From contig JAJYJC010000002.1 in assembly GCA_021796415.1 (NCBI GenBank), positions 7,983-71,982 on the forward strand: a DNA stretch of 64,000 nt, in the 5' to 3' direction. This DNA is from a bacterium. GTDB taxonomy: Bacteria > Patescibacteriota > CPR2 > UBA1875 > JAJYID01. Of the stretch, positions 1,716-41,017 are shown in pieces. Position numbers and translations under genes: made by a program. Each line of letters opens with the position of its first letter. Position 1 is the stretch's first letter. The notes beneath the pieces were generated by a model. It saw only the letters and a program-made list of their open reading frames with translations. It had not been told where the DNA came from and made no database searches.

Positions 1716-1718
1716 CTG

Positions 1719-2027: not shown

Positions 2028-2047
2028 TGTCAAACCTCCTCGCATTG

Positions 2048-2494: not shown

Positions 2495-2504
2495 GTTCCA
2501 CCTC

Positions 2505-2861: not shown

Positions 2862-3024
2862 GTCTGCTCCTTTGATATTTTTTCCAGAGTAAAATTTGAT
2901 CAGAGACCTTAAGGCCTATAACCAAATAAAACCCTGGAAGTTTTCAAGGTTCAAGATTTCTAATCATAACATAAAACTTGTCCTATGTAAAGCCCGAAAA
3001 GCCGAATTTTCTATTGGAATTCCT

Positions 3025-3543: not shown

Positions 3544-3552
3544 AGCAACTTC

Positions 3553-4856: not shown

Positions 4857-4925
4857 AGGGAAATTATAACACAAAAATGATAGATCATCGTATAAATAAT
4901 GCTTAATTTGCGGTATAATCTAGTT

Positions 4926-9479: not shown

Positions 9480-9486
9480 TAGTTCG

Positions 9487-9613
9487 AGGTATGCAATAAT
9501 AGCTTTCGAAGCGCTGAGATGTTCCCTCGGAGCATCCGAGACTAAAGTCTCAGAACACCACTTCGGGAGACGCTGCCTCCCAAAAAACTTAAGCCGTTGG
9601 CTTGGGTTTTTTA
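9487..9613 (+). ncRNA. candidate small RNA (~125 nt) between a consensus promoter and an intrinsic terminator
   Basis: No ORF. Internal hairpins ctgaga...tctcag and gggag...ctccc. Terminal hairpin aagccgttggctt followed by a T6 run. Confidence 0.3.
9588..9613. terminator. bidirectional intrinsic terminator
   Basis: Hairpin ttaagcc-gtt-ggcttgg flanked by A6 upstream and T6 downstream. Confidence 0.5.
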
Positions 9614-19930: not shown

Positions 19931-21695
19931 GCCAAAAAGGCTTCATCGCCCGAGCAGTAAAGAACGCGCGCGCCAGGAACAGGCTTTTGCCTTCCATGTC
20001 GGAGAACAGGATCAGCTCGACCTCATCACTTACGCAGGGCTGGAAGAGAGCGCAAACCACATTGAAATAGACGGCCAGTTTATGAAGACAATCTTTGTTT
20101 CCGGTTATCCCTACACTTCTTCAAGCGGATGGCTGAACCACCTTATTAACTTCAACCATAACGTCGATATCTCATATCACATTGAGCCGGTTGACGCCAC
20201 TATGGCTCTGCCTAAACTAAACCGCAAAATCACCGAGCTTACATCTACCAAAAGAGCGATGGAGCGAGACGGACGGATTATCGGGGCCGAGCTGCTCGAC
20301 CCTCTGGAATCGGCCATGGAGCTAAGAGACAGGATTCAAAGAGGACAGGAAAATCTCTTTCAAGTCTCTTTGTATATAACACTTTTTGCCGATTCTCTCG
20401 TAGAACTCGATAAGGTAACAAAGCTCTTGGAGACTGTTCTCGCCGCAAGGCTTTTCTATACTAAGCACGCGTCTTACAGGCAAATAGAGGGCCTCCAGTC
20501 GGTGCTGCCAAGGGGCGACAACCAGTTGGCCCAAAAAAGAAACTTAGACAGCTCGTCGGCCGCCATGACATTTCCCTTTATATCATCCGAGTATGTCCAT
20601 GATTCGGGGGTTCTATACGGCATAAACAGATCGAATAATTCTCTCGTGATTGTCGACCGCTTTAAACTCCCGAACGCGAACAGCATCCTTTTTGCCCAGT
20701 CAGGAGCCGGTAAGAGCTACACTGCCAAAGTAGAGATCTTAAGGCACCTGATGCAAGGGACAAAAGTAATTGTGATAGATCCCGAACGGGAATACCGCCA
20801 GCTGGCCGACTCGGTCAAGGGAACGTATATAAAGCTCTCTGTCCATTCAAAAGAAAAGATTAATCCCTTTGATCTCTCGGTTAATACATATAATGAAGCC
20901 GACGGCTTTGCAGACCACGTCCAGTCGCTGACCGAGATAATTTCTCTGATGGCCGAGGGGCTTTCAGCGGAAGAAAAGTCAGTCGTAGACCAGGCAATCA
21001 TCAAAACTTACAGGGAAGCCGGCTTTTCACGGAGAAAAACTAAAAAGAAGAACGACAAACCTTATCCAAAACTGCGTGACTTTGCCCGAATGCTTACAAC
21101 TCTAAAGCAAGACGGACTAAGGAGAAGGCTGGAAAAATATACCGACGGGTCACTATCTGAGGTGTTTAACTCCCAGACAAATATAGAGCTCGAGAATAGG
21201 CTGGTAGTCTTTGACACCAAAGACCTGCCGGAATCTCTCCGCCAGATCATGCACTTAATTATCGCCCAGTTCGTCCAAAATCAGGTCAAAAACAAAACCT
21301 GCAAGAGAACCCTTGTCATTGATGAGGCCTGGCTGATGCTTGAACATGAAGAGAGCGCCAGATTTATTGCCGGACTTGTCAGGCGGGCGAGAAAGTATTA
21401 TCTCGGAGTCAGTATTATTTCTCAGCAGGCCAATGACTTTCTCTCAAATAACTACGGACGGGCCATTGCTTCGCAAAGCGCCCTTAGAATCCTAATGAGG
21501 CAAGACACGACTACTATTAAAAATGTCGGTATCGAGTTTGGACTGAGCGAATATGAGCAGAAGTTTCTTTTGACCTGCGAGCGCGGCGAGGCTCTCATTA
21601 TCGCCGATCAGCACCATGTGGCGGTTAAGGTTACGGCTTCGGAAGAAGAGCATCCTTTAATTACTACCGATCCGGCCGAACTAAGAAAGGCTTGA
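19911..21695 (+). CDS. VirB4-family conjugative/T4SS ATPase, ATPase domain
   Basis: Walker A FAQSGAGKSYT. Walker B RTLVIDEAWLML. ISQQAND motif. Confidence 0.75.
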   Translation: MNLTSFKPKRLHRPSSKERARQEQAFAFHVGEQDQLDLITYAGLEESANHIEIDGQFMKTIFVSGYPYTSSSGWLNHLINFNHNVDISYHIEPVDATMALPKLNRKITELTSTKRAMERDGRIIGAELLDPLESAMELRDRIQRGQENLFQVSLYITLFADSLVELDKVTKLLETVLAARLFYTKHASYRQIEGLQSVLPRGDNQLAQKRNLDSSSAAMTFPFISSEYVHDSGVLYGINRSNNSLVIVDRFKLPNANSILFAQSGAGKSYTAKVEILRHLMQGTKVIVIDPEREYRQLADSVKGTYIKLSVHSKEKINPFDLSVNTYNEADGFADHVQSLTEIISLMAEGLSAEEKSVVDQAIIKTYREAGFSRRKTKKKNDKPYPKLRDFARMLTTLKQDGLRRRLEKYTDGSLSEVFNSQTNIELENRLVVFDTKDLPESLRQIMHLIIAQFVQNQVKNKTCKRTLVIDEAWLMLEHEESARFIAGLVRRARKYYLGVSIISQQANDFLSNNYGRAIASQSALRILMRQDTTTIKNVGIEFGLSEYEQKFLLTCERGEALIIADQHHVAVKVTASEEEHPLITTDPAELRKA

Positions 21696-21699
21696 AAAA

Positions 21700-22323
21700 A
21701 TGAACCCGGCCGCTATTAAGATAATCGCAAGCGCCTACTCAATGAAAAAGGAAATTAGGCTCGCGTTCATAACTCTCGTGGCTGTTTGCTTGATTCCGGT
21801 GGTTGCCGTTTTAATGATTACCCAAGTCGGGATTGACGCGGTTTCCGGAGCTCTTGCCAGCCAGAACCCTCAGACTCTTCAAGTTGATATTCACGATCCG
21901 AAGACCGGAGCGGTCATTGATCATATTGCAGGGCCGGCTATCTGGCCGGTTTCGGGCCCAGTGAGTCTGGAGTTTGGCCAGCCTTCTCCGTTTCAGCGGT
22001 TTCATACGGGAATTGATATAGCCGACCCGAACCACAGCGTCGGCACGCCGGTTGAAGCTTTTATGAAAGGCAAGGTTATTTATGCCGACAGCGATCCTTG
22101 GGGTTTCGGCCGTCATGTCATTATTGATCACGGCCACTTTGTCACCTCGCTATACGGCCACTTGAATACTATAAACGTTATTAAGGGGCAAGAAGTTGAC
22201 ATGGGAACAGTCATCGGTACCAGGGGCAATACCGGCTGGTCAACCGGTCCGCATCTCCATTTTCAGATCGAAGTTATGCATATCCCCGTGAACCCAAGGA
22301 TATTTTTGAGTGGGAATCCATAA
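21700..22323 (+). CDS. M23-family metallopeptidase (LytM-like) with an N-terminal TM anchor
   Basis: HTGIDIA...GHFVTSLYGHL...GPHLHFQIEV (HxxxD and HxH motifs of M23). Confidence 0.75.
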   Translation: MNPAAIKIIASAYSMKKEIRLAFITLVAVCLIPVVAVLMITQVGIDAVSGALASQNPQTLQVDIHDPKTGAVIDHIAGPAIWPVSGPVSLEFGQPSPFQRFHTGIDIADPNHSVGTPVEAFMKGKVIYADSDPWGFGRHVIIDHGHFVTSLYGHLNTINVIKGQEVDMGTVIGTRGNTGWSTGPHLHFQIEVMHIPVNPRIFLSGNP

Positions 22324-22384: not shown

Positions 22385-24496
22385 TTGAATCAAATGGAAA
22401 CAAGAGAAAGTCAACAATTTAACAATCAAACAGCTTTTCCAGAAAATCAGCACACTTACAACGATCTGAATTCTGGTGATATTGAAAACCAAGAAATTCA
22501 TTTTTCTGAGGAGCAAAAGACGGCAATCGAACAAAAAAGAAGAGTTCTTTCTTCTCTTGCCTACTTTATTGGTAAGGATTTTCAGATCCCTGTAGAGCTG
22601 AATGAACCGGGTATGGGTTGGCACTGGGATTTTAAGAAAAATGAAATCAAAGTCGATCCTAAAGATCTTATTGAAAAACCCATGGACTACTTAAGATTCG
22701 TTATTTCTCACGAGGGAGGACATCGCCGTATCTCTCGGACAGAATCGATTCCTCTCGAGACTTGGAAGCAGCCCGGTTTTTCTTTCATGATGAATGCGAT
22801 TGAAGATCCCAGAGATAACAACTTTGTGGCTGAAAACTACCCAAGATTTAGAAGTCAAATGGATGTGGCGTATAAAGACAGTATGGAACTTAAGCAAGAA
22901 TCTGCGCAGAAAGCAAGTGATGAGCTCGGTTATCAGCCTCGTTTTATGCAAGCTGGCTTTGAGTATATTAAGCAGTGGCACAAAGAACAAAAAGGTGAAA
23001 AATTTTCTGTAAGCGAAGATTTACCAAAAGAAGTTCGAGAGGTTGTTGAAAAGACTTTGAATGCGGCAAGCGACTCATGGTGGCGCTATCCGTCAAGAGA
23101 AGAAGCTGACTCAAGTGAAGAGACAATCAAAAAATATGCTGAGGCCTCTTATCGAATAAACCTAGAAAGAATTTGGCCTGAGTTTCAAAAACTTGTTGAG
23201 AAGGATATGGAAGATCAAAATATGCAAGAACTCCTAGGCCAGATGCAAACAAGTGAGGAAGAGGGTGGCTCGGGGTTACCTCAAGAACTCGAAGATAATC
23301 TATCGCCAGAAGAACAAAAGGTATTAGAAGAAGCAATCGAACAAGCCATGCAGAGTGGTGCTGAGGTACAGGAACAAACAGAAGCTGGCACACGAGGCAA
23401 ACCAATTGATTTAAGCTCTTTACCCGACGAGTTGAAACAAAAAATCCAAGATTATATTAATTCTTTGCCGGAAGATCAAAAGCGAGAACTTGCAGAAAAA
23501 GCAAGGGCGGCATTGTCTGATTTTGAAAAAGAACTAGATGAGGAATTGGGAGGGAAACTCTCAGATAGCCCGGAGAAAAAAGCCGAACGAGGCGAAGAAT
23601 CTGAGATACCGTTAGAAAGTAAGGCAACTACGACCGAACCAATTACCCCGGAAGAGTCCGATGAAGTGAGAAAATACAGAGAATTTATAGAACAAGAGCT
23701 ATCAAAAGACGCTAATGCCTATGAAAGACATCGCCGAGAGGTTTTACCCATTATTGACCAGCTTGAACAAGATTTAAGAGAAATTTTTGTTATGAGAAGA
23801 TCTGGCCAATGGGAAAGCGGATTTAGGTCAGGAAAAAGAATTGATATCAAAAGAAGAATACAAGAAAAAGCCAAGGGCGTATCTGCAATGGAGAGTAAGG
23901 CGTGGGAAAAGAGAGAATTGCCCCAAGAAAAGGATTATGCTGTCAGTCTGCTTGCTGATTTATCAGGATCAATGCGAGGAGAAAAGATAAAGGAAACTTT
24001 TAAGGCAGTCATTGTGTTATCTGAAGTGCTAAACAGATTATCAATCCAAACAGAGATTCTGGGCTTTAACAACAGGATTTATGATTATCAAAACTTTGGT
24101 GAGGACATATCAAACCAAAAACGAGAAAACATGGGCGGTATGCTTCAAGAAGTTGCGGGTAGCGGACACAGGTGGAACGATGACGGTTGGGCTGTTGAGC
24201 AGGCATCGGAGCGACTGGCAAAACAAAGAGCGAAAGAAAAGTTTCTTATTGTCCTTTCAGATGGCTTGCCGGAGGAATCTTCTGCCCATCCAAGAGCAAA
24301 GTATGAGCTTGGATCTGTGGTGCAAAAAATTATTGGCTCAACGGATCAAAAGTTAATTGGATTGGGCATCGGTCCAGATACAAATCATGTTGAAAATTAC
24401 TACCCAAATAGTATTTCCAATGTAAATGTAAAGGAAATGGCTGGAAAGCTGGCCGACCTCATCCGTGAAGCTATTGCTAATTTTGATAAATTTTAA
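22385..24496 (+). CDS. VWA-domain protein with an N-terminal HExxH metallopeptidase-like motif
   Basis: ISHEGGHRRI (HExxH). Acidic coiled-coil linker. C-terminal VWA domain with MIDAS DLSGSM and LIVLSDGLPEE. The architecture resembles DUF2201-type partners of MoxR-like ATPases. Confidence 0.65.
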   Translation: MNQMETRESQQFNNQTAFPENQHTYNDLNSGDIENQEIHFSEEQKTAIEQKRRVLSSLAYFIGKDFQIPVELNEPGMGWHWDFKKNEIKVDPKDLIEKPMDYLRFVISHEGGHRRISRTESIPLETWKQPGFSFMMNAIEDPRDNNFVAENYPRFRSQMDVAYKDSMELKQESAQKASDELGYQPRFMQAGFEYIKQWHKEQKGEKFSVSEDLPKEVREVVEKTLNAASDSWWRYPSREEADSSEETIKKYAEASYRINLERIWPEFQKLVEKDMEDQNMQELLGQMQTSEEEGGSGLPQELEDNLSPEEQKVLEEAIEQAMQSGAEVQEQTEAGTRGKPIDLSSLPDELKQKIQDYINSLPEDQKRELAEKARAALSDFEKELDEELGGKLSDSPEKKAERGEESEIPLESKATTTEPITPEESDEVRKYREFIEQELSKDANAYERHRREVLPIIDQLEQDLREIFVMRRSGQWESGFRSGKRIDIKRRIQEKAKGVSAMESKAWEKRELPQEKDYAVSLLADLSGSMRGEKIKETFKAVIVLSEVLNRLSIQTEILGFNNRIYDYQNFGEDISNQKRENMGGMLQEVAGSGHRWNDDGWAVEQASERLAKQRAKEKFLIVLSDGLPEESSAHPRAKYELGSVVQKIIGSTDQKLIGLGIGPDTNHVENYYPNSISNVNVKEMAGKLADLIREAIANFDKF

Positions 24497-24508
24497 TAAA
24501 ATTACGTT

Positions 24509-24934
24509 ATGATAAAGGAAAAATTTTCAACCTTTTTAGAATATTCTTTGTCTCAAAAAGAAGTTTCTCTAATCGTGGCCAAACATGAAAATGAGCTTTC
24601 TCATTTTGAGAGGTGGCTTGAAGACAAGGGGTTTAGAAGAGCTGCTCATGCTTTTGACTTGCTTGACAACCTTGAAGATCATAAGAAACTTTACGTGATT
24701 TTAAAAACAGAGAATGGCAAAGATTCCTATGATTTTGCGGCTCAGTTTCCAACGGGTCAGATTGAGCTTTTTGATAAAAAAACCATGAAAAAGATGCTAA
24801 AAAATATTGATTATAAAAACCGATCAATAGTCTTTTTAACCACAAAGCATCATCTCTTCGACCTTGAAAAGGAGGATTTTAATTTTCTCTCATCAGTTGG
24901 TATGGCTTTCAGAAATGGAGATGCCCATGTCTAG
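24509..24934 (+). CDS. hypothetical protein (141 aa)
   Basis: ORF between the VWA and ATPase genes. Confidence 0.4.
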   Translation: MIKEKFSTFLEYSLSQKEVSLIVAKHENELSHFERWLEDKGFRRAAHAFDLLDNLEDHKKLYVILKTENGKDSYDFAAQFPTGQIELFDKKTMKKMLKNIDYKNRSIVFLTTKHHLFDLEKEDFNFLSSVGMAFRNGDAHV

Positions 24935-27002
24935 TCCGGAATTTAGTTTACTTACCGATCCTGAGCAGGAAAAGCCTGTAGAGGATAAGCATCAGGAAGA
25001 AAAAAGCGAGACTCTCGCTCCGATTGCGGAGGATGAAACCTCGGTTTCATATCTAGGGGTAAGATTAGAAAAAGGGCATGTGCCAAGCCCCTTTATACCA
25101 GAGAGAGATAAATATACTGACTATATAAATGATCGATTTACCCTGGAGCTACAGCAGAAGATTGCCATCGGCTTTCAGTCGGGCGACCCTACTCTTATCG
25201 AAGGCGGGACTAGTATCGGTAAGACTACAGCAGCCAGAAAGATGTGTGCGGAACTTGGCTGGGAAGTTCATTATGCTAACTTGAATAAGGCCACGGATGT
25301 TGAAGATTTAATGGGCCGATATATTCCAAATCCTCATCGAACCAAACCTGATGATCCCGAGTTCGTTTTTGCCGATGGAAGAGTTACGGCCGGCCTAAGA
25401 CAGGAAGAAGGAAAAATAAAAGTTATCATCCTTGATGAATATAATGCGGCAGCGCCAAACATTGTAATCCGCCTGCATGAGGTACTAGATGCCCTTGAGC
25501 GTGATGGAGATGTTGTGCTATCGGAAGATGCCTCAGAAACCGTTCCTGTATCGAAAGATAAGACGAAATTAATTGCCCTCACTAATCCGCCCGGAAAAGG
25601 TTACTTTGGTCGTGAACCGCTAGATCCGGCTCAGTTAAGAAGATGGGTCTACCAGAAAGAAGCGAGCAATTTACCCGAAAATACTTTCTCTTTTTCAACC
25701 AAAAGTCTCTTTGGCTTGGTCTCGGAAAATGGCGATGTTATTCCCGAAGAAGTTTACCTAGAATCTCATGAAGACACTCTTTCTTCTCAGCAAATTGCTG
25801 AAATTCCCGGTATTAGCGAAGTGGAGGCAAAGTATGAAGAGTTTCATAGGGCAGCGAAAGAGCTTTTGAAAAATAGAACCATTGCTGCCGATCAACCGCA
25901 ACAGTTTACTTTTGATGATAGAATGGAGCCAAGACGGGTACGAGACTTTGTAATGAGGTTTTACAGCGGAGATATCAATGAAACTTTTCAGCAAGCTCTA
26001 AGATATTATTATTCGAATAAACTAGAGTCAGACGAAGACAGGCAGAAGATTGAAGAGCTAATCTCTCATGTAGGATACACTCCTCAGCCCGACTCAAGAA
26101 GGTTGGGTCTTGAGGATGAATCACGCCCAGAGGGAGTTGGCCTAAGAGATCAAGTCGAGATCGGCATAGAAGATATTTTGCAGGACCCGGCCATTCCGGA
26201 TTCAGTCAAAGAGGTTCTAAGAGTTGAGGGGGTAAAGTTTTCTGAGGCAAAGGAAATAATGAACCAAGATTTTATCGGTCCAGACGAGATTAAAAAAGCT
26301 TTTGGTTTAGAGGTGGATAGAGTACCAGATATTCCCTTTTCAAGAAGCGAACTGGAAAGAGCTAAGGAACTCGATCAAATGCTTATATATAGAACGGGTA
26401 CTGCTGCCCGAGGCGAGCCGATGACTATGGAAAAGATAAATGGCCTTCTTTCCGGCAAGACTAAAGATGGCGGAAAGATATTTTTTGATACTGATTGGTA
26501 TAAAGATGAGGCATTTTTTAAGTCTGAAGCAATCAAGGAAGGATGGTCTCTTGTGTCTAAGGAAGTTATATCTGAGTCGACCAGCAAGAACTATCTGGAG
26601 CAAACCGAGACAATGGTAGATTATCTTAGGAGTAAAGTTTTTGCAGGAGGCGATGTGCCAGAGGAATATCAGGAAGCAATTGGCCAATTTGAAAGCCAAA
26701 AAGATGAAATTTCAAAATTGATAGAAAGTAACTGGAAGAAAGCGGCTGAAAAACTAGAGGGTCTTTCCATTACTCACATGACCAGACAAAGACCGGTTGA
26801 AGCTATCTATGACTTAGTTGCTGTTTATGAGAATACTGATGACCATCTACTTTCTAACAGATATACTTGGACTTCCGCGCGTGACTCTGGCGGCAAGCTG
26901 GTCCGTGTGGGCTACTTCGATGCCAGGGGCGTGCGTGTCCACGGGGGCAGTCCCGACGATCGGTATGACAATCTGGGCGTTTCTTTCTCCCGCAGTCAGT
27001 GA
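24930..27002 (+). CDS. AAA_5/MoxR-like ATPase fused to a C-terminal DGR variable (target) domain
   Basis: Walker A GGTSIGKTTAARKM. Walker B VIILDEYN. Sensor 1 LIALTNPPG. Arginine motif LDPAQLRRW. The last 113 bp before the stop is VR1. The start is uncertain (24864-24930). Confidence 0.7.
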   Translation, partial: SSPEFSLLTDPEQEKPVEDKHQEEKSETLAPIAEDETSVSYLGVRLEKGHVPSPFIPERDKYTDYINDRFTLELQQKIAIGFQSGDPTLIEGGTSIGKTTAARKMCAELGWEVHYANLNKATDVEDLMGRYIPNPHRTKPDDPEFVFADGRVTAGLRQEEGKIKVIILDEYNAAAPNIVIRLHEVLDALERDGDVVLSEDASETVPVSKDKTKLIALTNPPGKGYFGREPLDPAQLRRWVYQKEASNLPENTFSFSTKSLFGLVSENGDVIPEEVYLESHEDTLSSQQIAEIPGISEVEAKYEEFHRAAKELLKNRTIAADQPQQFTFDDRMEPRRVRDFVMRFYSGDINETFQQALRYYYSNKLESDEDRQKIEELISHVGYTPQPDSRRLGLEDESRPEGVGLRDQVEIGIEDILQDPAIPDSVKEVLRVEGVKFSEAKEIMNQDFIGPDEIKKAFGLEVDRVPDIPFSRSELERAKELDQMLIYRTGTAARGEPMTMEKINGLLSGKTKDGGKIFFDTDWYKDEAFFKSEAIKEGWSLVSKEVISESTSKNYLEQTETMVDYLRSKVFAGGDVPEEYQEAIGQFESQKDEISKLIESNWKKAAEKLEGLSITHMTRQRPVEAIYDLVAVYENTDDHLLSNRYTWTSARDSGGKLVRVGYFDARGVRVHGGSPDDRYDNLGVSFSRSQ
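26878..26990 (+). repeat. DGR variable repeat VR1 (113 bp)
   Basis: Matches the TR at 29518-29630 with 13 substitutions, all at TR adenine positions. Confidence 0.85.
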
Positions 27003-27085
27003 TACTTTGAAAATTGATTTTTGAAACTTTGATACGCCGAAGGCGTCGGACACAAAATTTTAACAGAAGGTAATAAGGATAAAAA

Positions 27086-28066
27086 ATGAGCGAAATCGGA
27101 TCACCACAACCTGAAATACCGGAGGAAGCGGTAGAAAAAGAAGCTGAGGGTATTAGAATTGCCACAGAAATATCTGAGCTTAGGGCAAGTGCCCGTAATG
27201 AAGCTGATTATGAGAATATTTTGCAAAAAACTCGAGAGCTAAAGGAGCTTTTTGGGATAGTTGTAGAAGGTAAGCTTTCTGGCGAAGTTGCGGAACAGAT
27301 GAGTATGGCCAAAGAAATCATGGAGGAGGATTTTTTCGGTCCGGATGAGATTAAAAAAGCCCTTGGCATTGAAGTGACTGAAATGCCGGACATCCCATTC
27401 AAAAAAGAGGAACTAGAAAGAGCAAAGGAGCTAGAACAGATATTGATTTTGCGGACAGACAAAGCTTCCGATGGCAGTCCTCTAACAATGGAAAAGGTTC
27501 GCGACATGATGGGTAACGAAGACAAAGATGGCGGAAAAATCTTTTGGGAGAGCGCTGACTGGTATAAAGATGAAGCTTTTTATACCAAAGAGACTGCTAA
27601 AGTTGGTTGGGCGTTGGTCTCTAAAGAGGAAATTCCTGATGCAACCAATAAAAATTATTTAGAACAAACAGAAAGTCTTGTTACTTACCTCAAAAACCAA
27701 GTTTTTGCCGGAAAACCGATGCCAAAAGAATATCAGGATGCCGTAGGCGAATTTGAATCACAGAAGTCAACAATAGAGAGTTTGGTCGAAGATGACTGGA
27801 AAGCTGCAGCAGAGAAGTTATCCAAGCTTTCCATTACCAAGCTCACCCGCCAATCACCGGTTGAGGCCATTTATGATATAGTAGTGCATTATCAGAACAC
27901 GGATGAGAGATTGCTAGAAGAAATGTATACTTGGACTTCCGCGCGTGACTCTGGCGGCAGGCTGGTCCATGTGGGCGGCTTCGGTGCCGAGGGCGTGAAT
28001 GTCAACGGGAGCAGTCCCGACTCTCGGTATGACTTTCTGGGCGTTTCTTTCTCCCGCAGTCAGTGA
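27086..28066 (+). CDS. DGR target protein paralog (326 aa)
   Basis: About 65% identical to the C-terminal 270 aa of the 24930-27002 product. VR2 sits at its 3' end. Confidence 0.7.
   Translation: MSEIGSPQPEIPEEAVEKEAEGIRIATEISELRASARNEADYENILQKTRELKELFGIVVEGKLSGEVAEQMSMAKEIMEEDFFGPDEIKKALGIEVTEMPDIPFKKEELERAKELEQILILRTDKASDGSPLTMEKVRDMMGNEDKDGGKIFWESADWYKDEAFYTKETAKVGWALVSKEEIPDATNKNYLEQTESLVTYLKNQVFAGKPMPKEYQDAVGEFESQKSTIESLVEDDWKAAAEKLSKLSITKLTRQSPVEAIYDIVVHYQNTDERLLEEMYTWTSARDSGGRLVHVGGFGAEGVNVNGSSPDSRYDFLGVSFSRSQ
27942..28054 (+). repeat. DGR variable repeat VR2 (113 bp)
   Basis: Matches the TR with 14 substitutions, all at TR adenine positions. Confidence 0.85.
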
Positions 28067-28123
28067 TACTTTGAAAATTGATATTTGAAACTTTGATACG
28101 CCGAAGGCGTCGGACACAAATTT

Positions 28124-29194
28124 TTAACTATCGATGATTTTATCGATTTCTTTTTTAATCTCTGCTCCTCTGCAGTGACTTAAAATCCCTAAATATGATT
28201 GAACCATTTGCTTGAAAGATTGCTGGTCTTCTTCACTCCCGGAAAGCAAATACTTTTTTGCTCTAATCTTCCTCAGCATTCTTTTCTTGGTCTTTGTTCT
28301 AAGGATTATATGGTATGGAAAAACAACATAACCCAAAAAGTCAATTCCTTGGCTAAACTTTCTGAGAACAATTTTGTCCGAATGAAGTTGTAGGCGAAGT
28401 TCTTTTTTTAAGAAATGAGCTAATGTTGGTATCAGTTTTTCTAGATGTTTGACATCTGTGCTCAAGATCACAAAGTCGTCTGCATAACGGATGTAATATT
28501 TCTCCTTGAGATTTCTTTTGACAAATTGATCAAGGGCATTCAAATAGACATTAGAGAAAAGCTGGCTGGTGAGATTTCCCAAAGGTATACCTCGCCTTGG
28601 TTCATTCTTTAGCTGATTTGTATTGAAACTCTCTATAATCTCTTCTAGTAAAGCTATCAGGTCTTTTTCTTGAATCACCTTTTCAATTAGGTTTAAAAGT
28701 ATGTCGTGATCAACTGAATCAAAAAATTTCCTTATATCGCACTTCAAAACCCAGACAGTTCTTGTATTATTTTTAGATAGTTTCCACGCAAAATATCGAA
28801 GGCGGTGAACTGCCTTATGCGTCCCTTTTTCTTTTCGGCTGGAGTACGAGTCAAAAATAAATTTCTTTTCAAAAACAGCTTCAATGACGCGGAAAATAGC
28901 GTGATGTAAAACCCGATCAAGAACCAGAGCCTTATTGATGGTTCTAAGTTTTGGGTCAGTGACATAAAATGTTGTATAATCAGAATGTCGATAACAATTA
29001 TTTTTCAGCTCATTGTGAAGTTTGTAAATTTGATTTTCAGGATTTAGGGCAAATGCCTGAACATCTAGCTTGCTTTCTTTACCCTTTTTAAATTCTCTCC
29101 AGGCGGAGAAGAGATTTTCCAATGATATTATTTGATCAAACAAACTATGACAACCACTCCTGACAACAGATTTTCCGATATTTCGATTATTCAT
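28124..29194 (-). CDS. DGR-type reverse transcriptase
   Basis: RT motifs: DGR-characteristic GIPLGNLTSQLFSNVYLNALDQFV (LGNxxSQ in place of the group II intron QGxxxSP), YIRYADDFVIL (YADD), GIDFLGY. The start codon may be the downstream TTG (about 29140). Confidence 0.8.
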   Translation of the reverse strand: MNNRNIGKSVVRSGCHSLFDQIISLENLFSAWREFKKGKESKLDVQAFALNPENQIYKLHNELKNNCYRHSDYTTFYVTDPKLRTINKALVLDRVLHHAIFRVIEAVFEKKFIFDSYSSRKEKGTHKAVHRLRYFAWKLSKNNTRTVWVLKCDIRKFFDSVDHDILLNLIEKVIQEKDLIALLEEIIESFNTNQLKNEPRRGIPLGNLTSQLFSNVYLNALDQFVKRNLKEKYYIRYADDFVILSTDVKHLEKLIPTLAHFLKKELRLQLHSDKIVLRKFSQGIDFLGYVVFPYHIILRTKTKKRMLRKIRAKKYLLSGSEEDQQSFKQMVQSYLGILSHCRGAEIKKEIDKIIDS

Positions 29195-29512
29195 AAAACC
29201 TACAAGTTTTATCTTGCTTTATATTCCACAAATCAGTTTTTACCAAAGAGAGATCGATATACTCTTGGGGTGAAAGCCGAAAATATTAGTTTGGAGATTC
29301 TTGAAACGTTATATTTAGCCAATTCTAAAGCTGGCAATATCCGCCTAGAACTGCTAGAAAAAGCCGATGTGAAGTTAAAAGTTCTCCAAGCAGTCATACG
29401 CCTTTGCCACGATACAAAAGCGCTTGATCAAAACAAATATCTTGCTTTGCAGTCTGCATTGCAAGAAATAGGGAAAATGCTTGGAGGTTGGATAAAAACT
29501 ACAAAAAGTTAG
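29132..29512 (+). CDS. Avd-like four-helix-bundle accessory protein
   Basis: Similar to the Avd / 23S-rRNA-intervening-sequence four-helix-bundle family (…LPKRDRYTLGVKAENISLEILETL…, C-terminal EIGKMLGGWIK). Lies between the RT and TR on the opposite strand. The start may be the internal Met at 29147. Confidence 0.55.
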   Translation: MIKQTMTTTPDNRFSDISIIHKTYKFYLALYSTNQFLPKRDRYTLGVKAENISLEILETLYLANSKAGNIRLELLEKADVKLKVLQAVIRLCHDTKALDQNKYLALQSALQEIGKMLGGWIKTTKS

Positions 29513-29517
29513 ACTTC

Positions 29518-29630
29518 GGAGAAAGAAACGCCCAGATTGTCATTCCGATTGTCGGGACTGTTCCTGTTGACATTCACGCCCTTGGCATCGAAGTTGCCCA
29601 CATTGACCAGCTTGCCGTCAGAGTCACGCG
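29518..29630 (-). repeat. DGR template repeat (TR, 113 bp, sense on the minus strand)
   Basis: The reverse complement aligns base for base with VR1 and VR2. Every mismatch is at a TR adenine (17 of 27 adenines vary across the two VRs). Variable codons are mostly AAY. Confidence 0.85.
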
Positions 29631-30073
29631 TTTCTTTACACTTTTCCATCTAAGCAAGGGTAATGTGATGAGGATTCTCAAAAAATTGTTTCAAAACATT
29701 ACCTGTTTGAAAATGCGGTGACCAATCACGCCAGAAAAGTGTAAGCAGTCTATACTATCTTTGCGAGATATATCCGTAAACATATCTTCATTGCTTAAAC
29801 ATTTTATCACAATTTGGCTTTTATAAACAGAAAGCTACCAAAAGATAACTTTTTTGTATACTTGTCTTCTGATTTCATAAGGGTAAAATGGGCATATGAA
29901 AAAGGCAGAATTTTTAAAAGAATTTGATAAATATTCCGAGAAGTTTCTTGATGCTATACCAAGACAAGCACTAGGGTATAGCCAATGGCTGATGATGGCC
30001 GATGATTTCAGAATGTTCGTGGAGACCGGTAAACTGCCAAATCAGCTTAATGAAGAAAATACCAAATAATACT

Positions 30074-30451: not shown

Positions 30452-31045
30452 TTATCCTAAAATAATGCTTATTATATTAAATACAGCTACGATACTTTTA
30501 ACCAATATTACCATAACTTGGCGCATAACCGCGAATAATCCGGAAAACATGCCCTTTAAAATAAACTCTAATATAGACGCTCTAGTGCCGGCCATTAGTT
30601 TTAAATTGCCGTCTAAATCCAGGTGCGATATAATCTGAGCAGTCAACGCCTCATCTTCTGTTCTTGTCATTAACTCTCTGCTTGATCTTTGGGAGAGAAT
30701 ATTCATACTTCCTGTCCAAAGAATCTTTTTGTCAATCACGGCTACTTTTTCATGTATAGAACCTTCGAGAAAAACCACTTTCGCCCCTAAATTCTCATAG
30801 ATTTGGGCAGCGGCTCTAGCTTCTTCTTGAACATATTCTTCATGTTCTCCAATAGGTCGGGTAAATATAAAAAGTTTAATGTTTTTAATCCTCAGTCTAA
30901 CAAAGGTCTTCCTGAAGAAATCAGCCCGATGCTTCGTAATAAAAGGACTATAAATAATAACCTCTTTCTCGGCTTTCAGTATATCTTTTGTAAAAGCCGG
31001 GTAAAAAGTGCGTTCGTTATAGATTGTTGTTGTTTGGTTTATCAA
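30452..31045 (-). CDS. PLD-family (HKD) nuclease-like protein with a C-terminal hydrophobic tail
   Basis: Single HKD motif HEKVAVIDKKILWTGSMN (HxKxxxxDxxxxxxGSxN), as in Nuc-type endonucleases. Confidence 0.6.
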   Translation of the reverse strand: MINQTTTIYNERTFYPAFTKDILKAEKEVIIYSPFITKHRADFFRKTFVRLRIKNIKLFIFTRPIGEHEEYVQEEARAAAQIYENLGAKVVFLEGSIHEKVAVIDKKILWTGSMNILSQRSSRELMTRTEDEALTAQIISHLDLDGNLKLMAGTRASILEFILKGMFSGLFAVMRQVMVILVKSIVAVFNIISIILG

Positions 31046-31108
31046 TTTTTCTCCTTTGGTTTGTTTTTATATAGAAATTATCACTATAGTTTGTTAAAAT
31101 ACGTTTAT

Positions 31109-31315
31109 ATGAAGAATAAAGAAGCCGTAAAAATCGGGAAAGAGCTTAGGAAGGCTCGCGAGGCGACCGGTCTAACTCAAGCCGAAGTGGCCGGAAAAGC
31201 GGGAATTACCACGAATTATTACGCTATGGTCGAGCGCGGGGAAAAGAATATTACTTACAAGAAGATGCAGCGTATTTTAAAGGTGCTCAACGTAAAATCA
31301 CTGGACAACGGCTAA
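31109..31315 (+). CDS. XRE-family HTH transcriptional regulator (69 aa)
   Basis: LRKAREATGLTQAEVAGKAGITTNYYAMVERGEKNITYKKMQRILKVL is a typical Cro/C1 HTH. The upstream part of the tracked ORF lacks coding character. Confidence 0.6.
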   Translation: MKNKEAVKIGKELRKAREATGLTQAEVAGKAGITTNYYAMVERGEKNITYKKMQRILKVLNVKSLDNG

Positions 31316-34992: not shown

Positions 34993-36417
34993 TAATAAAA
35001 TTATATATAGTTCTAGTAAAGGATTTTTTATATAAAAAAGACAATAAAAAGCTTGATTTATTTTTTTAAGTTTGCTAAACTTTATAAAGCTAATAAAAAC
35101 AGGTCATTTATGACAAACGAAACGACAACTAAATACAGAGTGGACGGAAGCGGCTGTTAGCCAAAAAATTAAGTTGCTTTAAGGAAGTCCGCTAAAGGCG
35201 GATTTTTAAATTGTTTTGGCAAATTGGCGTGAAAAGATTTCAAATCGATTCAGCCGAAACAATTCGCGCCTCGCGCGAAAGTATACAGTATCCCGTATTC
35301 AGTATTGAGGTTTTATACCGAATGCACAATACTCGATACCCAATACTGTCAAGCGAGCATTGCGAGTTAAGATCGGACTTTGACAACTGAATACAGATAC
35401 ATGCTAATCCTTAAGGATTCAAGGTCGGATGTTAAATTTTTAATTTTGCATTTTGAATTTTGAATTACAGTATGTATCTTAGGGTAAACGAAATATTACA
35501 ATTTCAAATCCAGTTGATGATTACTGGTTAAGTTCGTGTCTCACTTTCGTTCGACAACGAACAGTATGCGGTATTCTGTATTCAGTATTGAGGAATTAAT
35601 CCCAATACACAATACTCGATACGCAATACTGATTATTCGCGAGCGGTAGCGAGATACGAATAAATCATCATTAAGTCAAGAAAGAGCATATGGTGGATGC
35701 CTTGGGATTTCAGGCCGATGAAGGACGTAGTAAGCTGCGATAAGCTTCGGGGAAGTGCTAAACAACTTTTGATCCGGAGATTTCCGAATGGAGCAATCCG
35801 GCTCGGGTTATGCCGAGTCACACTTAGCTGAATACATAGGCTATTTGAGGGCACGCGGAGAACTGAAACATCTTAGTACCCGCAGGAAAAGATATCAACC
35901 GATATTCCGTCAGTAGTGGCGAGCGAAAGCGGAAAAGCCAAAACTTTTTTAATGTTAAAGCTTATGGGCGTTGTTAAAAAAGTGTTGTGAGGTAGATACA
36001 CTCCTTTTTGGAGGTTAGATTTGGGACACTGGCTTGTGCTTTGCACAAGGAAATTCAAAGTACTAAATCCGAAATCCGAAACAAAACTTCAAATTCAAAA
36101 TACTAAACTAGAAACGTGTTTAGAACATTTGAATTTAGATATTAGATATTGTTTCGTGCTTCGAGATTAGAATTTAGGATTTTCTCGCGTAAAGCGCGAG
36201 TTTAGCTCCAAAACTAATACCAGGATCCATAAATCTTGGGTAAGGTAAGAAAACGAGAGTTTTAATGGAATATTCTGGAAAGAATAACCATAGAGGGTGA
36301 TAGTCCCGTACGTAAAAAAACTTTTGTCCTTATGTATTTATTCTCTAGTACTACGGAGCCCGTGAAACTCTGTAGGAATCTGGGTGGACCACCATCCAAG
36401 GCTAAATACCTGAAATC

Positions 36418-36462
<45 letters not shown>

Positions 36463-38288
36463 TGTTAGGGGAGTGAAATAGAATCTGAAACCGTATGCTT
36501 ACAGACGGTCGGAGCCGATACTTTGTATCGGGAATGTCTAATTTCCAATTAGCAATTTCCAGTCAATGAATAAATGTCTAATTTCCAATTTTGGAATTTA
36601 AAGCATTAGGATTTGATTGGACATTAGAAATTGGTCATTGGTAATTCTGATACAGAGTGTCGGTGACGGCGTGCCTTTTGTAGAATGAGCCAACGAGTTA
36701 CCCCGCACTTTTTGTCTAAGCCGTTCCGCGGTGGAGGCGAAGGGAAACCGAGTGTTAATAGCGCGATTTTAAAAGTGCTGGGTAGACCCGAAACCGGGTG
36801 ACCTATCCATGGGCAGGCTGAAGCGGCGTTAAACCGTCGTGGAGGGCCGAACCCACTTACGTTGCAATGTGAGGGGATGACCTGTGGATAGCGGAGAAAT
36901 TCCAATCGAACCCGGAAATAGCTGGTTCTCTCCGAAATAGCTTTAGGGCTAGCGTCATAAATTCGCTTTTGGAGGTAGAGCACTGACTGGGCTAGGGGGC
37001 ATATAGCTTACCAAACCCAAATAAACTCCGAATTCCGAAAGTTTTATTATGGCAGTCAGAACGTGGGGGCTAAGCTCCACGCTCGAAAGGGAAACAGCCC
37101 AGATCGCCATCTAAGGTCCCTAAGTCTATGCTAAGTGGAAAAGGATGTGAGATCGCATAAACAACCAGGAGGTTGGCTTAGAAGCAGCCATGCCTTTAAA
37201 GAGTGCGTAACAGCTCACTGGTCTAATGCGATTTTGCGCCGAAGATATAACGGGGCTAAGCATAGCACCGAAGATGCGAGTTCGCCGTAGGCGAACACAG
37301 AGTAACTAAAGAACCAAGGAACGGAAGAACAAAAAGACAAATTCATTTGTTTTAAGTTTTTCAGTTCTTATGTTCATCTGTTATTTTGTGCTCGTCTATG
37401 GCGAGCGGTAGGAGAGCGTTCCATACTGCAGTGAAGCTGAACTGGAAAGTTTGGTGGAGTGTATGGAAGTGAGAATGTTGGCATGAGTAACCAAAATCCC
37501 TGTGAAAAACAGGGACACCGTAAACCCAAGGTTTCCTGGGCAACGATAATCGTCCCAGGGTTAGTCGGTCCTAAGCCGAGGCCGAAAGGCGTAGGCGATG
37601 GACAACAGGTTGATATTCCTGTACTGCTTATTTTGTTCCCACAAGTGACGCAGGATGGTAGCCGGAGCATTTTATGGCTATAGGTGTCTAAGTGTCTAGG
37701 TGCTTCGCTTTTGTTTCGCAAGTGAAAAGTTAAAAATGCAAAGTGAAAAGTTGTCGTATTCTTCGGATGATTTATAATCGTCGCGAAGCGACTCATAAAC
37801 TTTCAACTTTTAAATTTGAACTTTAAATTATTTGCGACGCGTAAGCGGAGCATTGAAGCACGAATGAAATCTCCGTAAAACGAGAAATTCCGGTAAGCCA
37901 AACTGACTAGAAAAGCTTGTGATTAATAGAGATAAGCAACCGTACCGAAAACCAACACAGGTGGGTGGGTAGAGAATACCAAGGTGCTCGGGAGAACCCT
38001 CGTTAAGGAACTCGGCAAAACAGCGGGCGTAACTTCGGGATAAGCCCTGCCTGGGTGTGCCGCTTTGTTCCTGAGAACGAAATGCATAAAAACAAAAAGT
38101 TGAGAAAAGAAGTGAAGACAAGAAACTCGGGAGCATAGCGGCACATCTAGGCCGCAGCGAATGAGTCCAGGCGACTGTTTATCAAAAACACAGGTCTCTG
38201 CTAAATCGTAAGATGAAGTATAGGGGCTGACGCCTGCCCAGTGCTGGAAGGTTAAGTGGATGGGTGCAAGCTCTGAAATGAAGCCCCA

Positions 38289-38344
<56 letters not shown>

Positions 38345-39143
38345 GAAAATCGGAACTGCCCGAAACGCGCGGTGACGCGCGGCAAGCAAACTGGCTAATA
38401 ACGGTGAAACCCTACTATCATTAATGTTATAATGATGTACGAGGGCAATACCGTGGCAACTGGTCGTTAAGCGACAGTATACAGTATTCTGTATCCAGTA
38501 TTGGGGGTTTTAAATCCTCAATACACAATACCCTATACTCAATACTATCGCGAGATGCGATTGGAGCCGTAACGACTGAACCGAAAGGTGAGGCTCTGCG
38601 AAAAACAGGGCAATACGCCAGCTCTCGCTAAAAGAAAGGCGACTATGGATTAGAATATTGAACTTCATAATTCTAAAAAAGATCCTAAGGTTGTTGGCGA
38701 GATGAAGATATAGTCTGATCAATACGGTAACGTATTGCGAACATATGAAGTTCCGACCCGCACGAATGGCGGAACGGTCTGGACACTGTCTCAACGAGGG
38801 ACCCGGTGAAATTGCAATAGCGGTAAAGATGCCGTTTACCCGCGACAAGACGGAAAGACCCCGTGGAGCTTTACTACAGCTTGGCATTGGATTAGGGTCT
38901 TGCATGTGTAGGATAGGTGGGAGACTTTGAAGCCGGAACGCTAGTTTCGATGGAGTCGCTGGTGAAATACCACCCTTGTAAGGTTTTGATTCTAACCCGG
39001 ACCGAAAATTGGAAACAATTTTCTTCCAAGATTTAAAAGTTGTCAGAGAAGCTGCTACAATTAATTTTCCAAAATAGCTTTAGCAACTTTTAAACTACTG
39101 GAGCAGATTGCTTTCAGTTTCCGGTTCGGAGACAGTGTCTGGT

Positions 39144-39176
<33 letters not shown>

Positions 39177-39396
39177 GGTAACGGAGGCGTTCAAAGGTGG
39201 GCTAGGTCTGGATGGAAATCAGACTGATAGTGCAAACGCATAAGCCCGCTTGACTGCAAGGCCTACAAGCCGCGCAGAGACGAAAGTCGGAGTTAGTGAT
39301 CTTTTGAGTGCACGTGGGTGCCTCATTGCTTAACGGACAAAAGCTACCCCGGGGATAACAGGCTTATAGGATCCAAGAGTCCACATCGACGATCCT

Positions 39397-39433
<37 letters not shown>

Positions 39434-39467
39434 GTGAAGCAGCTCCCAAGGGTTTGGCTGTTCGCCA

Positions 39468-39523
<56 letters not shown>

Positions 39524-39570
39524 TGTCGTGGGCGTTGAAACTTGAGGAGATCTGTCCCTAGTAAGAAATT

Positions 39571-40900: not shown

Positions 40901-41017
<117 letters not shown>

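Follow-up and report, generated by a model that had tools for sequence, protein, structure and literature searches.

A periodic TTGR array and a small hairpin recur behind both VRs of a two-target diversity-generating retroelement of the Patescibacteria

The stretch of DNA analysed here (64,000 nucleotides, called the window below) is chromosomal DNA of an uncultured Patescibacteria (CPR) bacterium and carries a diversity-generating retroelement (DGR). This DGR is canonical for the CPR type, its layout is TR-(avd)-RT (TR, template repeat), and its two targets are old sister genes (Table 1). As judged from sequence, the 3′ flank of each variable repeat (VR) is a conserved, VR-specific element, in which a periodic array of TTGR cores is followed by a small hairpin. 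The array and the hairpin fit a homing signal on the target side. We consider it likely that the DGR diversifies two old paralogues, that the composite in the VR flank marks the recipient and promotes integration of the cDNA, and that some gene conversion takes place. TTGA repeats and a small hairpin recur after the targets throughout this clade of retroelements, and they may mark the site of rewriting.

Table 1. Features of the DGR locus, in window coordinates.
Feature	Position	Strand	Basis or property
Target gene 1, N-terminal AAA_5 (MoxR-like) ATPase fused to variable C-terminal module	24927..27002	+	ORF list, gene call
Paralogous module copy 1, 250 aa	26250..26999	+	64% identity to copy 2
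VR1	26878..26990	+	113 nt, 88% complementary to 29518-29630
3′ cis element copy 1: IMH-like CGCAGTC 26991-26997; stop codon 27000-27002; TTGA cores at 27007, 27014, 27021, 27029; hairpin ACGCC-GAA-GGCGT 27034-27046; AAAATTTT 27054-27061	26991..27064	+	Sequence, pattern search, register conserved in relatives
Target gene 2, stand-alone 326-aa paralogue	27086..28066	+	ORF list
Paralogous module copy 2	27311..28063	+	Protein and DNA comparison with copy 1
VR2	27942..28054	+	88% complementary to TR
3′ cis element copy 2: CGCAGTC 28055-28061; stop codon 28064-28066; TTGA cores at 28071, 28078, 28085, 28093; hairpin 28098-28110; A/T run 28117-28125	28055..28128	+	Sequence, repeat comparison, pattern search
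DGR reverse transcriptase (RT)	28124..29143	-	Pfam RVT_1, E = 2.9e-25; gene call
avd, bAvd-like four-helix bundle	29147..29512	+	Pfam PF22296 bAvd, E = 1e-18, above cut-off; strand opposite TR and RT
IMH*-like TR end, GAAGTC	29512..29517	-	VRs have CGCAGTC here
TR	29518..29630	-	27 adenines
Presumed DGR RNA 5′ domain upstream of TR (assignment inferred)	29631..29800	-	Blocks conserved across relatives

The RT contains the motifs YIRYADDF and GNLTSQLFSN, the latter of which we take to be the DGR-typical SQ motif. The same two motifs retrieved 585 RT relatives, and the order TR-(avd)-RT is common to nearly all relatives. With avd on the reverse strand between TR and RT, this order is known as architecture B3 (Wu et al., 2018; PMC5758913), and the window has exactly this arrangement. 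B3 DGRs of the CPR set with P-loop NTPase targets correspond to DGR clade 2 (Wu et al., 2018, PMC5758913; Roux et al., 2021, PMC8144416). Like these, the DGR of the window has an opposite-strand avd, a Patescibacteria host and, in one of its targets, a P-loop (AAA_5) domain upstream of the VR. Unlike most relatives, in which everything lies on one strand, its TR-(avd)-RT unit points the other way from the targets, and RT and targets converge. No Rfam family matched the conserved domain upstream of the TR. Possession of two targets is an already known condition: two VRs stand here with one TR close to one RT, and 13% of DGRs have two targets (PMC5758913; PMC8144416). Multi-target DGRs of Treponema denticola and Stenotrophomonas have up to 8 targets (PMC5758913; PMC4891356). 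As in those, several paralogous VRs are served by one TR and RT, and every VR has an IMH of its own. Unlike those, the paralogues of the window are an ancient syntenic pair, one of them ATPase-fused, and both belong to a conserved vWA/AAA_5 cassette.

The VRs lie at the 3′ end of the targets, and 9 nt separate them from the stop codons. Every mismatch with the TR falls on a TR adenine (13/13 in VR1, p = 5e-10; 14/14 in VR2, p = 7e-11). None of the 86 non-adenine positions of the TR differs in either VR, while the neighbouring coding DNA has diverged by 32%, and, read in the frame of the VR, all 27 TR adenines stand at the first or second codon position. VR1 and VR2 show 15 differences from each other, at TR-adenine sites. 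Since both VRs equal the TR at every non-adenine and differ at 15 adenine sites, they were written by the same template and diversified independently, which bears out the proposal of an earlier note on this DNA that one RT/TR serves two targets. The same pattern is indirect evidence for mutagenic homing that may be ongoing. The window has a single TR, and the 18-mer at the VR end occurs exactly three times in the 64 kb (0.07 expected), in the two VRs and the one TR.

At the 3′ boundary, the shared TTTCTTTCTCC is continued by CGCAGTCAG in the VRs and by GAAGTCTAAC in the TR. An imperfect repeat resembling IMH and IMH* (IMH, initiation of mutagenic homing) follows directly after the shared adenine-free block, as CGCAGTC in the VRs and (C)GAAGTC in the TR, and in nearly all of 37 VRs the position opposite the TR A is a fixed C. 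An IMH-like GC-rich boundary had been suggested here. The quoted VR and TR sequences are correct, but the boundary lacks the GC richness seen in BPP-1: the block CTGGGCGTTTCTTTCTCC is adenine-free and half T, in place of a 14-bp G/C-only start of an IMH. The string tacttggacttccgcg at 26862-26877, upstream of VR1, had also been put forward as part of the signal. It is present as written; however, it is coding sequence for YTWTS within a conserved YTWTS(A/R)R motif, and its synonymous sites vary in relatives.

Target gene 1 starts at 24927 in the NCBI gene call, with the longest ORF starting at 24864, and residues 111-260 of its product match Pfam AAA_5 (E = 6.4e-12). Its C-terminal module gave an AlphaFold2 model with pLDDT 94.9. 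The product of target gene 2 has an exact match in public collections and 241 homologues, all from Patescibacteria-type MAGs. An identity of about 65% had been claimed for the two protein segments, and the alignment of 26250-26999 with 27314-28063 agrees (160/250 residues, 64%; E = 4e-121; one 1-residue gap), with the start of the second copy moved from 27330 to about 27311. At the DNA level, the copies are in register at +1061 until about 26489 and at +1064 beyond, and coding identity ranges from about 55 to 75% per 30-nt bin. The VR-flanking DNA is near-identical, as had been stated: a block of 203 nt around the VRs (26862-27064 against 27926-28128) is 92% identical, and after the stop codons 60 of 62 nt are shared, against 68% in the coding DNA upstream. 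To call the products receptors goes further than the variable module permits, in which a signal peptide and a Pfam domain were looked for and not found, and whose match to the C-type lectin fold is weak.

Downstream of each VR, the flank string of the earlier note was found as written at 27000-27057, with its single t/a difference at 27019/28083, and the conserved cis element which it was thought to represent is upheld by relatives, where cores and hairpin are conserved and VR-specific. Together with the stop codon, the four TTGA cores form five TGR triplets at spacings of 8, 7, 7 and 8 nt. The four-core TTGR pattern has exactly two matches in the 64-kb window, where 0.05 are expected. Most of 37 VR flanks in the target family have TTGR cores at +4, +11, +18 and +26, counted from the stop codon; in TR flanks of the family the array was looked for and is absent. 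At least four in-phase triplets occur in 27/37 modules with a TR in the locus and in 2/18 without one (Fisher p = 2.5e-5; random-window background 0.1%), although the loci are phylogenetically related and share ancestry, so that these and the following counts of arrays and hairpins overstate independence. The array is degraded in 10 of the 37 DGR-linked flanks, and one intact array follows a non-target gene (L014:915-940).

The array extends beyond the target family. In a set of 51 metagenomic loci with 54 VRs, whose RTs are 46-60% identical, the targets have no BLASTP similarity to the window module except at 3 loci (5 VRs). Their VR flanks contain 4.4 TTG per 75 nt against a background of 1.6, and consecutive TTGs are 7-9 nt apart in 53% of cases, against 13% in background. 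At least three in-phase cores are present in 43% of these flanks, compared with 0.8-1.4% of controls, and the opposite strand, when checked, had no array. Thus, a YYTTGR array with a period of 7-9 nt also follows the VRs of unrelated target families with related RTs. A search for complementarity between flank and DGR RNA found none (7.7 nt for self pairs, 7.3 nt across loci), so any recognition would have to be by protein or by DNA structure. No description of a periodic array after VRs was found in the DGR literature covered, which included PMC5758913 and PMC8144416.

That the 3′ flank might fold into a hairpin or cruciform proved right in part: a hairpin does fold as DNA, weakly (-4.7 kcal/mol), with a stem of only 5 bp and a 3-nt GAA loop, and, taken over its full length, the window flank is no more stably folded than shuffled sequence (z about 0). 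The distance to the hairpin is 43 nt from the point where TR homology stops, 36 nt if counted from the IMH-like end, and 31 nt if counted from the stop codon. Relatives have stems of 5-10 bp, mostly with GAA or GTA loops, starting 29-39 nt 3′ of the stop codon. Such a hairpin is found in 12/22 flanks of the family (0.6 expected) and in 26/53 metagenomic flanks (4.1 expected). The sequence of the stem varies between genomes with pairing retained, and 7 of 7 stem pairs are changed on both sides. Of the stem cells, 88% are paired, against 35-53% with the partner slid, a percentage that is partly circular because the hairpin set was chosen for having a stem. Many VR flanks of relatives, among them those of L004, L007, L013 and L028, have the array without a hairpin.

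A GC hairpin with a T-rich run behind it resembles a terminator, and terminators were considered for the inverted repeats of DGRs by Wu et al. (PMC5758913). The element could be imagined to act on transcription or mRNA, as a terminator, a 3′-end stabiliser, or a promoter or operator of the next gene, with no relation to homing. For a promoter, TTGATA is similar to a -35 hexamer, 27029-27058 is among the sites listed by the promoter scan, and a TGnTATACT -10 box lies within about 30 nt downstream in L023, L025 and L029. However, the terminator scan calls neither site, and the T-run begins 11 nt past the stem, which is not the form of an intrinsic terminator. VR flanks of L004 and L007 that stand directly before another gene keep the array without the hairpin. 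Behind copy 2 comes the convergent RT gene, whose stop codon (28124-28126) lies inside the A/T run of that copy, so that no gene follows copy 2 on the same strand. The array is also specific to VR flanks and weaker after TRs, and its pattern is found nowhere else in the window. An effect on transcription alone is thus an unlikely account of the element, and a signal for homing is preferred.

The earlier note read the two modules as a tandem duplication of about 1 kb that took the homing signals along. The duplication is not recent, and the near-identity of the flanks is not its relic. Copy 1 is the C-terminal module of the AAA_5 fusion, and in a tree of the non-VR parts it clusters with copy 1 of L002 and L008, while copy 2 clusters with copy 2 of L002. 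Since the copies group by position and not by genome, the duplication predates these species. About 20 genomes have the pair of an AAA_5-fused and a stand-alone target, and the gene order vWA, 141-aa ORF, AAA_5::module, module is present in many genomes. Flanks of paralogues in one genome are 97-100% identical (window, L002, L025), whereas those of orthologues are 66-77% identical, which indicates, at the level of sequence comparison, concerted evolution on top of functional constraint.

From the same contrast it might be argued that recent gene conversion or duplication alone made the flanks identical, that the 3′ sequence has no function, and that the 203-nt tract arose by conversion starting from the homologous VRs. 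The tract even includes the 16 coding nt upstream of the VR (26862-26877), whose synonymous sites are unconserved elsewhere. Yet the register of the array and the place of the hairpin are constant between genomes in which coding changes have reached saturation (40-60% identity as protein), and L011, L012 and L029 retain cores and hairpin although their paralogous flanks are down to 65-76% identity. Enrichment of the array next to unrelated target families likewise contradicts conversion as the sole explanation. Conversion accounts for the extra identity of the flanks and not for their conservation, and without a function for the flank it is very unlikely to suffice; conversion added to a functional signal remains our preferred reading. 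An assembly artefact, in the form of an expanded or collapsed repeat, is next to impossible: the near-identical 203-nt block could in principle mislead an assembler, but about one third of coding bases differ between the copies (64% identity as protein, about 68% as DNA outside the VR), and the copies have different N-terminal contexts and their own orthologues, and appear in the same arrangement in independent assemblies of other samples (L002, ENA; L003, JGI; L008, NCBI).

In phage BPP-1, the target signal consists of (GC)14, a 21-bp IMH and a hairpin/cruciform (Guo et al., 2011; PMC3240598), and efficient homing requires the IMH and the GC inverted repeat downstream of the VR (PMC3240598; PMC12875486). 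This inverted repeat has a stem of 7-10 bp and a 4-nt GRNA loop and lies 4-34 bp from the VR end (PMC3240598). As in BPP-1, the signal of the window is directly 3′ of the VR and absent from the TR, the TR/VR match is imperfect at the 3′ boundary of mutagenesis, the GC stem varies in sequence with pairing preserved, and the loop starts with G and has purines on the sense strand. Unlike BPP-1, where the boundary block is pure GC, the block here is T/C-rich and adenine-free. The stem of 5 bp (5-10 bp in relatives), the GAA/GTA triloop and the distance of 43 nt after TR homology are outside the published dimensions, and the space between is occupied by four or five YTTGR units in strict phase, an array that the description of BPP-1 does not have. 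Periodic triplets are bound by ring-shaped oligomers, such as HutP (UAG triplets with 4-nt spacers) and TRAP (GAG/UAG repeats). As an analogy only, the TTG/TGR cores of the window are repeated 4-5 times with a fixed period of 7-8 nt, on one strand only. Avd is a pentamer in BPP-1. Its binding has been reported to be non-specific (PMC5758913).

The DGR would then work as follows. Transcription of the minus strand would give an RNA carrying the TR, which RT and Avd would copy into cDNA with misincorporation opposite adenines, on the model of the Bordetella phage BPP-1. The cDNA replaces VR1 or VR2, as the mismatch pattern shows, and the 3′ limit of replacement would fall within the adenine-free block CTGGGCGTTTCTTTCTCC(C)G. 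Beyond this limit, the VRs have a composite without counterpart in the TR, made of five TGR triplets, a short GC hairpin closed by C-GAA-G, and an A-run/T-run, which may mark the recipient and promote integration of the cDNA, and would be the counterpart in this clade of the IMH plus hairpin/cruciform of BPP-1. The TTGR repeats may be a docking site for the complex of Avd, RT and RNA, or a device that keeps the sense strand single-stranded. Occasional gene conversion between the VR regions would also contribute to the near-perfect identity of the flanks in this genome. The C-run of the window TR is one base shorter than in the window VRs and in the TRs of relatives, and this 1-nt deletion at the boundary could impair homing.

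The locus is a diversity-generating retroelement (DGR) in which one template repeat (TR) serves two variable repeats (VRs) by adenine-specific transfer. With the TR read in the RT sense, all 13 differences of VR1 (p = 5e-10) and all 14 of VR2 (p = 7e-11) fall on TR adenines, while none of the 86 non-adenine TR positions is changed in either VR. The TR adenines themselves all occupy codon positions 1 or 2 (27/27). In the 64-kb window the repeat end is present three times and no more, thus there is a single TR. Since 15 adenine sites distinguish VR1 from VR2, both were rewritten from this template and have diverged independently, which bears out the claim of the earlier note that one RT/TR has two independently diversified targets. 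The order TR, avd on the opposite strand, and RT is architecture B3 of Wu et al. [quoted passage not shown] Target homologues were found exclusively in Patescibacteria-type genomes, and the source contig likewise belongs to a Patescibacteria-type MAG. A two-target CPR DGR with an IMH (initiation of mutagenic homing) and a hairpin is already a known kind of system.

Features of the two-target DGR locus (window positions)
Feature	Position	Strand	Remarks
Target 1 gene	24864/24927-27002	+	Alternative ORF/gene starts
Target 2 gene	27086-28066	+	Adjacent to target 1
VR1	26878-26990	+	88% complementary to TR
VR2	27942-28054	+	88% complementary to TR
Hairpin ACGCC-GAA-GGCGT	Starts +31 from stop codon	Sense	5 bp, -4.7 kcal/mol
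Reverse transcriptase gene	28124-29143	-	Converges on both targets; Pfam RVT_1 match
bAvd-like gene, 121 aa	29147-29512	Opposite to TR and RT	Pfam
TR	29518-29630	-	113 nt, 88% complementary to both VRs

Over their C-terminal 250 residues, the two targets share 64% identity (E = 4e-121). When the window is compared with itself, the DNA register between the copies is +1061 and then +1064, and identity of the coding DNA stays at about 55-75% per 30-nt bin but reaches 92% across 203 nt (26862-27064 vs. 27926-28128). The paralogous segments with near-identical VR flanks were thus recovered, and both flank strings that had been quoted for them are present, with the sole t/a difference at the position claimed. 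As for the coordinates, the duplication stood, and the start of the second copy had to be moved from 27330 to near 27311.

Not all of the identical DNA is a signal. The 16 identical bases at 26862-26877 code for a conserved YTWTS(A/R) motif, and relatives differ in this string at synonymous sites, even between the two copies of L002 (L-numbers denote related loci from other genomes). The upstream 16-mer, once proposed as a homing signal, was therefore rejected as a cis element at the DNA level. At the other end, the TR/VR homology stops in an adenine-free block, CTGGGCGTTTCTTTCTCC. On its 3′ side the VRs continue with CGCAGTC-AG-TGA; the TR of the window has GAAGTC there, and those of relatives have CCCGAAGTC. 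In nearly all VRs a C is fixed opposite the TR adenine, so that this position sets the 3′ boundary of conversion, in the manner of an IMH/IMH* pair. The suggestion of an IMH-like boundary, with CGCAGTC in the VR against GAAGTC in the TR directly after the shared block, is upheld, with a block that is not GC-rich in the BPP-1 sense. The window TR (TCTCC-GAAGTC, 29512-29520, minus strand) lacks one C that is present in its own VRs (TCTCCCGCAGTC) and in the TR of every relative (TCTCCCGAAGTC); either a true indel at the homing boundary or an error of sequencing could account for the shorter form.

Downstream of this boundary, four TTGA cores are placed at +4, +11, +18 and +26 from the stop codon in the window flanks, and CGGACAC-AAAATTTT comes after the hairpin. 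The register of the cores is kept exactly across 37 VR flanks from about 20 genomes, the invariant alignment columns being the T, T and G of each unit. If the stop codon is included, there are five TGR triplets with spacings of 8, 7, 7 and 8 nt. In L002 and L030 the stop codon is TAG or TAA, not TGA, and an extra short TTGA/ATGA unit precedes the four standard ones. The 64-kb window holds the four-core pattern twice (0.05 expected). Among the 44 loci searched, the pattern lies after VRs, with L014:915 as the sole exception. Of 37 modules whose locus includes a TR, 27 have at least four in-phase triplets, vs. 2 of 18 modules without a TR and 0.1% of random windows. The flank carries a conserved composite element specific to VRs, as the earlier note had claimed for the 3′ side. 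The exceptional array in L014 (880-945, ttgatttgatatttggcatttgacattttgaat) lies after a four-helix-bundle (Avd-like) ORF instead of a VR, and is the only intact one away from a VR among the family loci. A reading of the repeats as stop codons in three frames was rejected because L026, L027, L031 and many metagenomic loci use TTGG; the TGAs of the window array are in frames 2, 0, 1 and 0. In viral contigs, TTGAN3TTGAN3TTGAN4TTGA gave 119 matches, none beside a VR-like end and most in simple heptamer satellites, so the bare pattern is not diagnostic outside the VR context. Literature searches found no earlier description of a phased YYTTGR array between an IMH and a hairpin, although their reach was limited and such absence is not proof of novelty.

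As for the suggested check for a hairpin in the conserved 3′ flank, a small one was found. Of 22 family flanks, 12 (0.6 expected) have a perfect, GC-containing stem of 5 bp or more behind the array, and it starts 29-39 nt after the stop codon. Stems vary across genomes (ACGCC, TACCGCC, TCCCGCC, CTGCCAACCC, TTTTTGC, GTCGGC and GCCGGC), and the loop is mostly GAA or GTA with a C-G closing pair. In a loop-anchored alignment of sequences pre-chosen for having a stem, changes on both sides were seen in 7/7 pairs, and 88% of cells pair vs. 35-53% with a slid partner. Several relatives have no hairpin altogether. Triloops of the d(C-GNA-G) type are unusually stable in DNA. Such stability would agree with the hairpin/cruciform in DNA that Guo et al. 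(PMC3240598) put forward; they described stems of 7-10 bp, GRNA loops and distances of 4-34 bp. Compared with that of BPP-1, the Bordetella phage DGR, in the same study, the window hairpin is smaller (5 bp) and farther away. For the flank as a whole, larger RNA or DNA structure scored z ~0 against shuffles, the small hairpin being the one feature that stands out. The idea that the VR flank pairs with the DGR RNA in the manner of a guide was rejected, since the longest match averages 7.7 nt within a locus vs. 7.3 nt across loci. With no such pairing detected, recognition would be by protein or by DNA structure of the sense strand.

Is the array a property of the target family or of the retroelement? 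Through an alignment of 15 RTs, 80 metagenomic loci were gathered whose RTs are 46-60% identical to that of the window; 51 of them yielded 54 TR/VR pairs in which 75% or more of the mismatches fall on adenines. BLASTP similarity of the targets to the window module was limited to 3 loci (5 VRs), the rest having quite different VR peptides; ten targets sampled against Pfam gave one AAA_5, one weak sub-threshold SHS2_FTSA and eight without a match. TTG density is 4.4 per 75 nt in the VR 3′ flanks vs. 1.6 in random windows of the same loci. Consecutive TTGs are 7-9 nt apart in 53% of cases against a background of 13%, with a harmonic at 14-17 nt, and the unit consensus is YYTTGR. At least three in-phase cores are present in 43% of the flanks (0.8% of random windows, 1.4% of shuffled flanks) and at least four in 23% (0.2% and 0.1%, respectively). 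No array was found on the opposite strand of these flanks, and TR flanks are weaker, 14% of them reaching three in-phase cores. The hairpin is present in 26 of 53 metagenomic flanks against 4.1 expected, and L178 and L210, both metagenomic, reproduce the whole composite, with the repeats followed by CCGCC-GNA-GGCGG-TCGAA(A)TT. In these sequences, the array goes with the retroelement and not with the target gene family.

In coding DNA, paralogues are 68% and orthologues 70% identical. Identity of the 62-nt flank within a genome is 97% in the window, 100% in L002, 98% in L025 and 90% in L016, vs. 66-77% between orthologues. The locus is thus a case of concerted evolution within a genome that affects the target flanks but not the genes. 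For the paralogous flanks of L011, L012 and L029, identity has fallen to 65-76%, with cores and hairpin kept. The simplest reading is that flank identity has two layers, purifying selection on cores, spacing and stem pairing, and presumed occasional gene conversion between VR regions. What would seed such conversion is the stretch of over 100 nt whose homology the DGR itself maintains. By itself, gene conversion leaves the conservation of the flanks across genomes and across target families unaccounted for. A transcriptional role of the element, as a terminator or an upstream promoter region, is a less probable alternative and fits poorly: a spacer separates the stem from the T-run, some internal flanks lack the hairpin, copy 2 has no downstream gene, and the element is specific to VRs. 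A terminator scan made no call on the hairpin.

The tandem duplication proved to be old, not recent. The gene order of vWA protein, 141-aa ORF, AAA_5::module, module and DGR is also found in L002/L003, L008 and many other genomes; the L002/L003 targets are 61% identical, and more distant relatives have three VR-bearing genes. When the non-VR parts were placed in a neighbour-joining tree, the first copy of the window clustered with copy 1 of L002 and L008, and the second with L002 copy 2. The same clustering by position is seen for L011/L012 and L023/L025/L029. Since orthologous copies cluster across genomes, the duplication is older than these lineages and the genes have been independent since. 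The explanation of the second copy as an assembly artefact is excluded.

The DGR model inferred from BPP-1 is that RT-Avd copies the TR RNA and the cDNA would then replace the VR, helped by target-side signals (PMC3240598; PMC12875486). In the present clade, array, hairpin and A/T run together are proposed as the recipient signal. A more specific reading is tentative and on balance rather doubtful: the phased YYTTGR array, with 4-5 units at a period of 7-9 nt on the sense strand alone, may be a sequence-specific signal, hitherto undescribed, that marks recipients in the Patescibacteria DGR clade. It would license cDNA integration and replace the (GC)14/IMH logic of BPP-1. It would be read on ssDNA by a pentameric Avd-RT-RNA complex, or would manipulate replication or priming beside the VR. 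If this is true, the 75-nt flank should suffice to make any TR-homologous gene a DGR target. In the window, GC skew has positive values over 24-28 kb and climbs along most of the sequence. If the skew reflects replication direction, which is only suggestive, the targets are co-directional and their sense strand would be the lagging-strand template, the orientation favouring homing in E. coli (PMC12875486). How DGR cDNA finds and replaces the VR is the unsolved step of mutagenic retrohoming according to that 2026 reconstitution study (PMC12875486), and knowledge of the target side rests largely on one phage system. In a large uncultured DGR clade, the VRs are followed by another kind of signal, simple and strongly phased, which is kept across target genes that are unrelated; this offers a compact hypothesis on recipient recognition that mutagenesis can test, and the 75-nt flank could serve as a portable tag to retarget DGRs of this clade.

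Several further observations concern the DGR and its surroundings. The stop codon of the RT gene (28124-28126) falls within the A/T run (28117-28126) of the second 3′ element; gene and element abut with no spacer. Upstream of the TR, a conserved non-coding domain (29631-29800, minus strand; also in L004, L007, L011-L016 and L022-L030) presumably forms the 5′ portion of the DGR RNA. Among its blocks are GGCTAATGAAG, TTTACGGA, AGACTGCTTACACTTTTC, CGCATATTTATACAGGC and GATGGAAAAGTGTAAAGAAACG, and within it CTTACACTTTTC can pair with GGAAAAGTGTAAAG. This domain matched no Rfam family, nor was any known RNA family found in 26800-30000, even at E <= 5. A GC hairpin with a T-run directly follows the TR in most relatives, and is absent from the window and L002.

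The cassette of a vWA (CobT_C-like) protein, the 141-aa ORF, the AAA_5 ATPase fused to a DGR-variable module and the stand-alone module (22385-28066) is shared with L002, L008, L011, L014-L016, L023, L025-L027, L029 and L031. It resembles a MoxR-vWA pair with hypervariable C-termini, and the membership of the diversified proteins in a vWA/AAA_5 (MoxR-like) cassette hints that they act in intracellular sensing and not as receptors at the surface. The cassette may be on a mobile island: a serine recombinase adjoins it in L002 (1-340), a VirB4/TraG-like ATPase and an M23 peptidase are upstream in the window (~21000-22323), and a PLD-family nuclease and an HTH protein downstream (30452-31315). In L009, five tandem paralogues of the target module (775-5385) occupy one 5.7-kb contig that has no TR; none of the five has a TTGR array, and one ends TR-like in ...TTTCTTTTTCCCGTCGAAGT. 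Elsewhere in the window, the 23S rRNA gene (35669-39549) spans 3881 nt vs. 2925 nt of the Rfam model, with about 950 nt of insertions that are possibly introns or intervening sequences. A 5S gene follows (40901-41017), and no 16S gene was found in the 64 kb. A DUF3800-V RNA (RF02964) match at 9485-9580 on the plus strand scored 71.5 bits, well above the gathering score.
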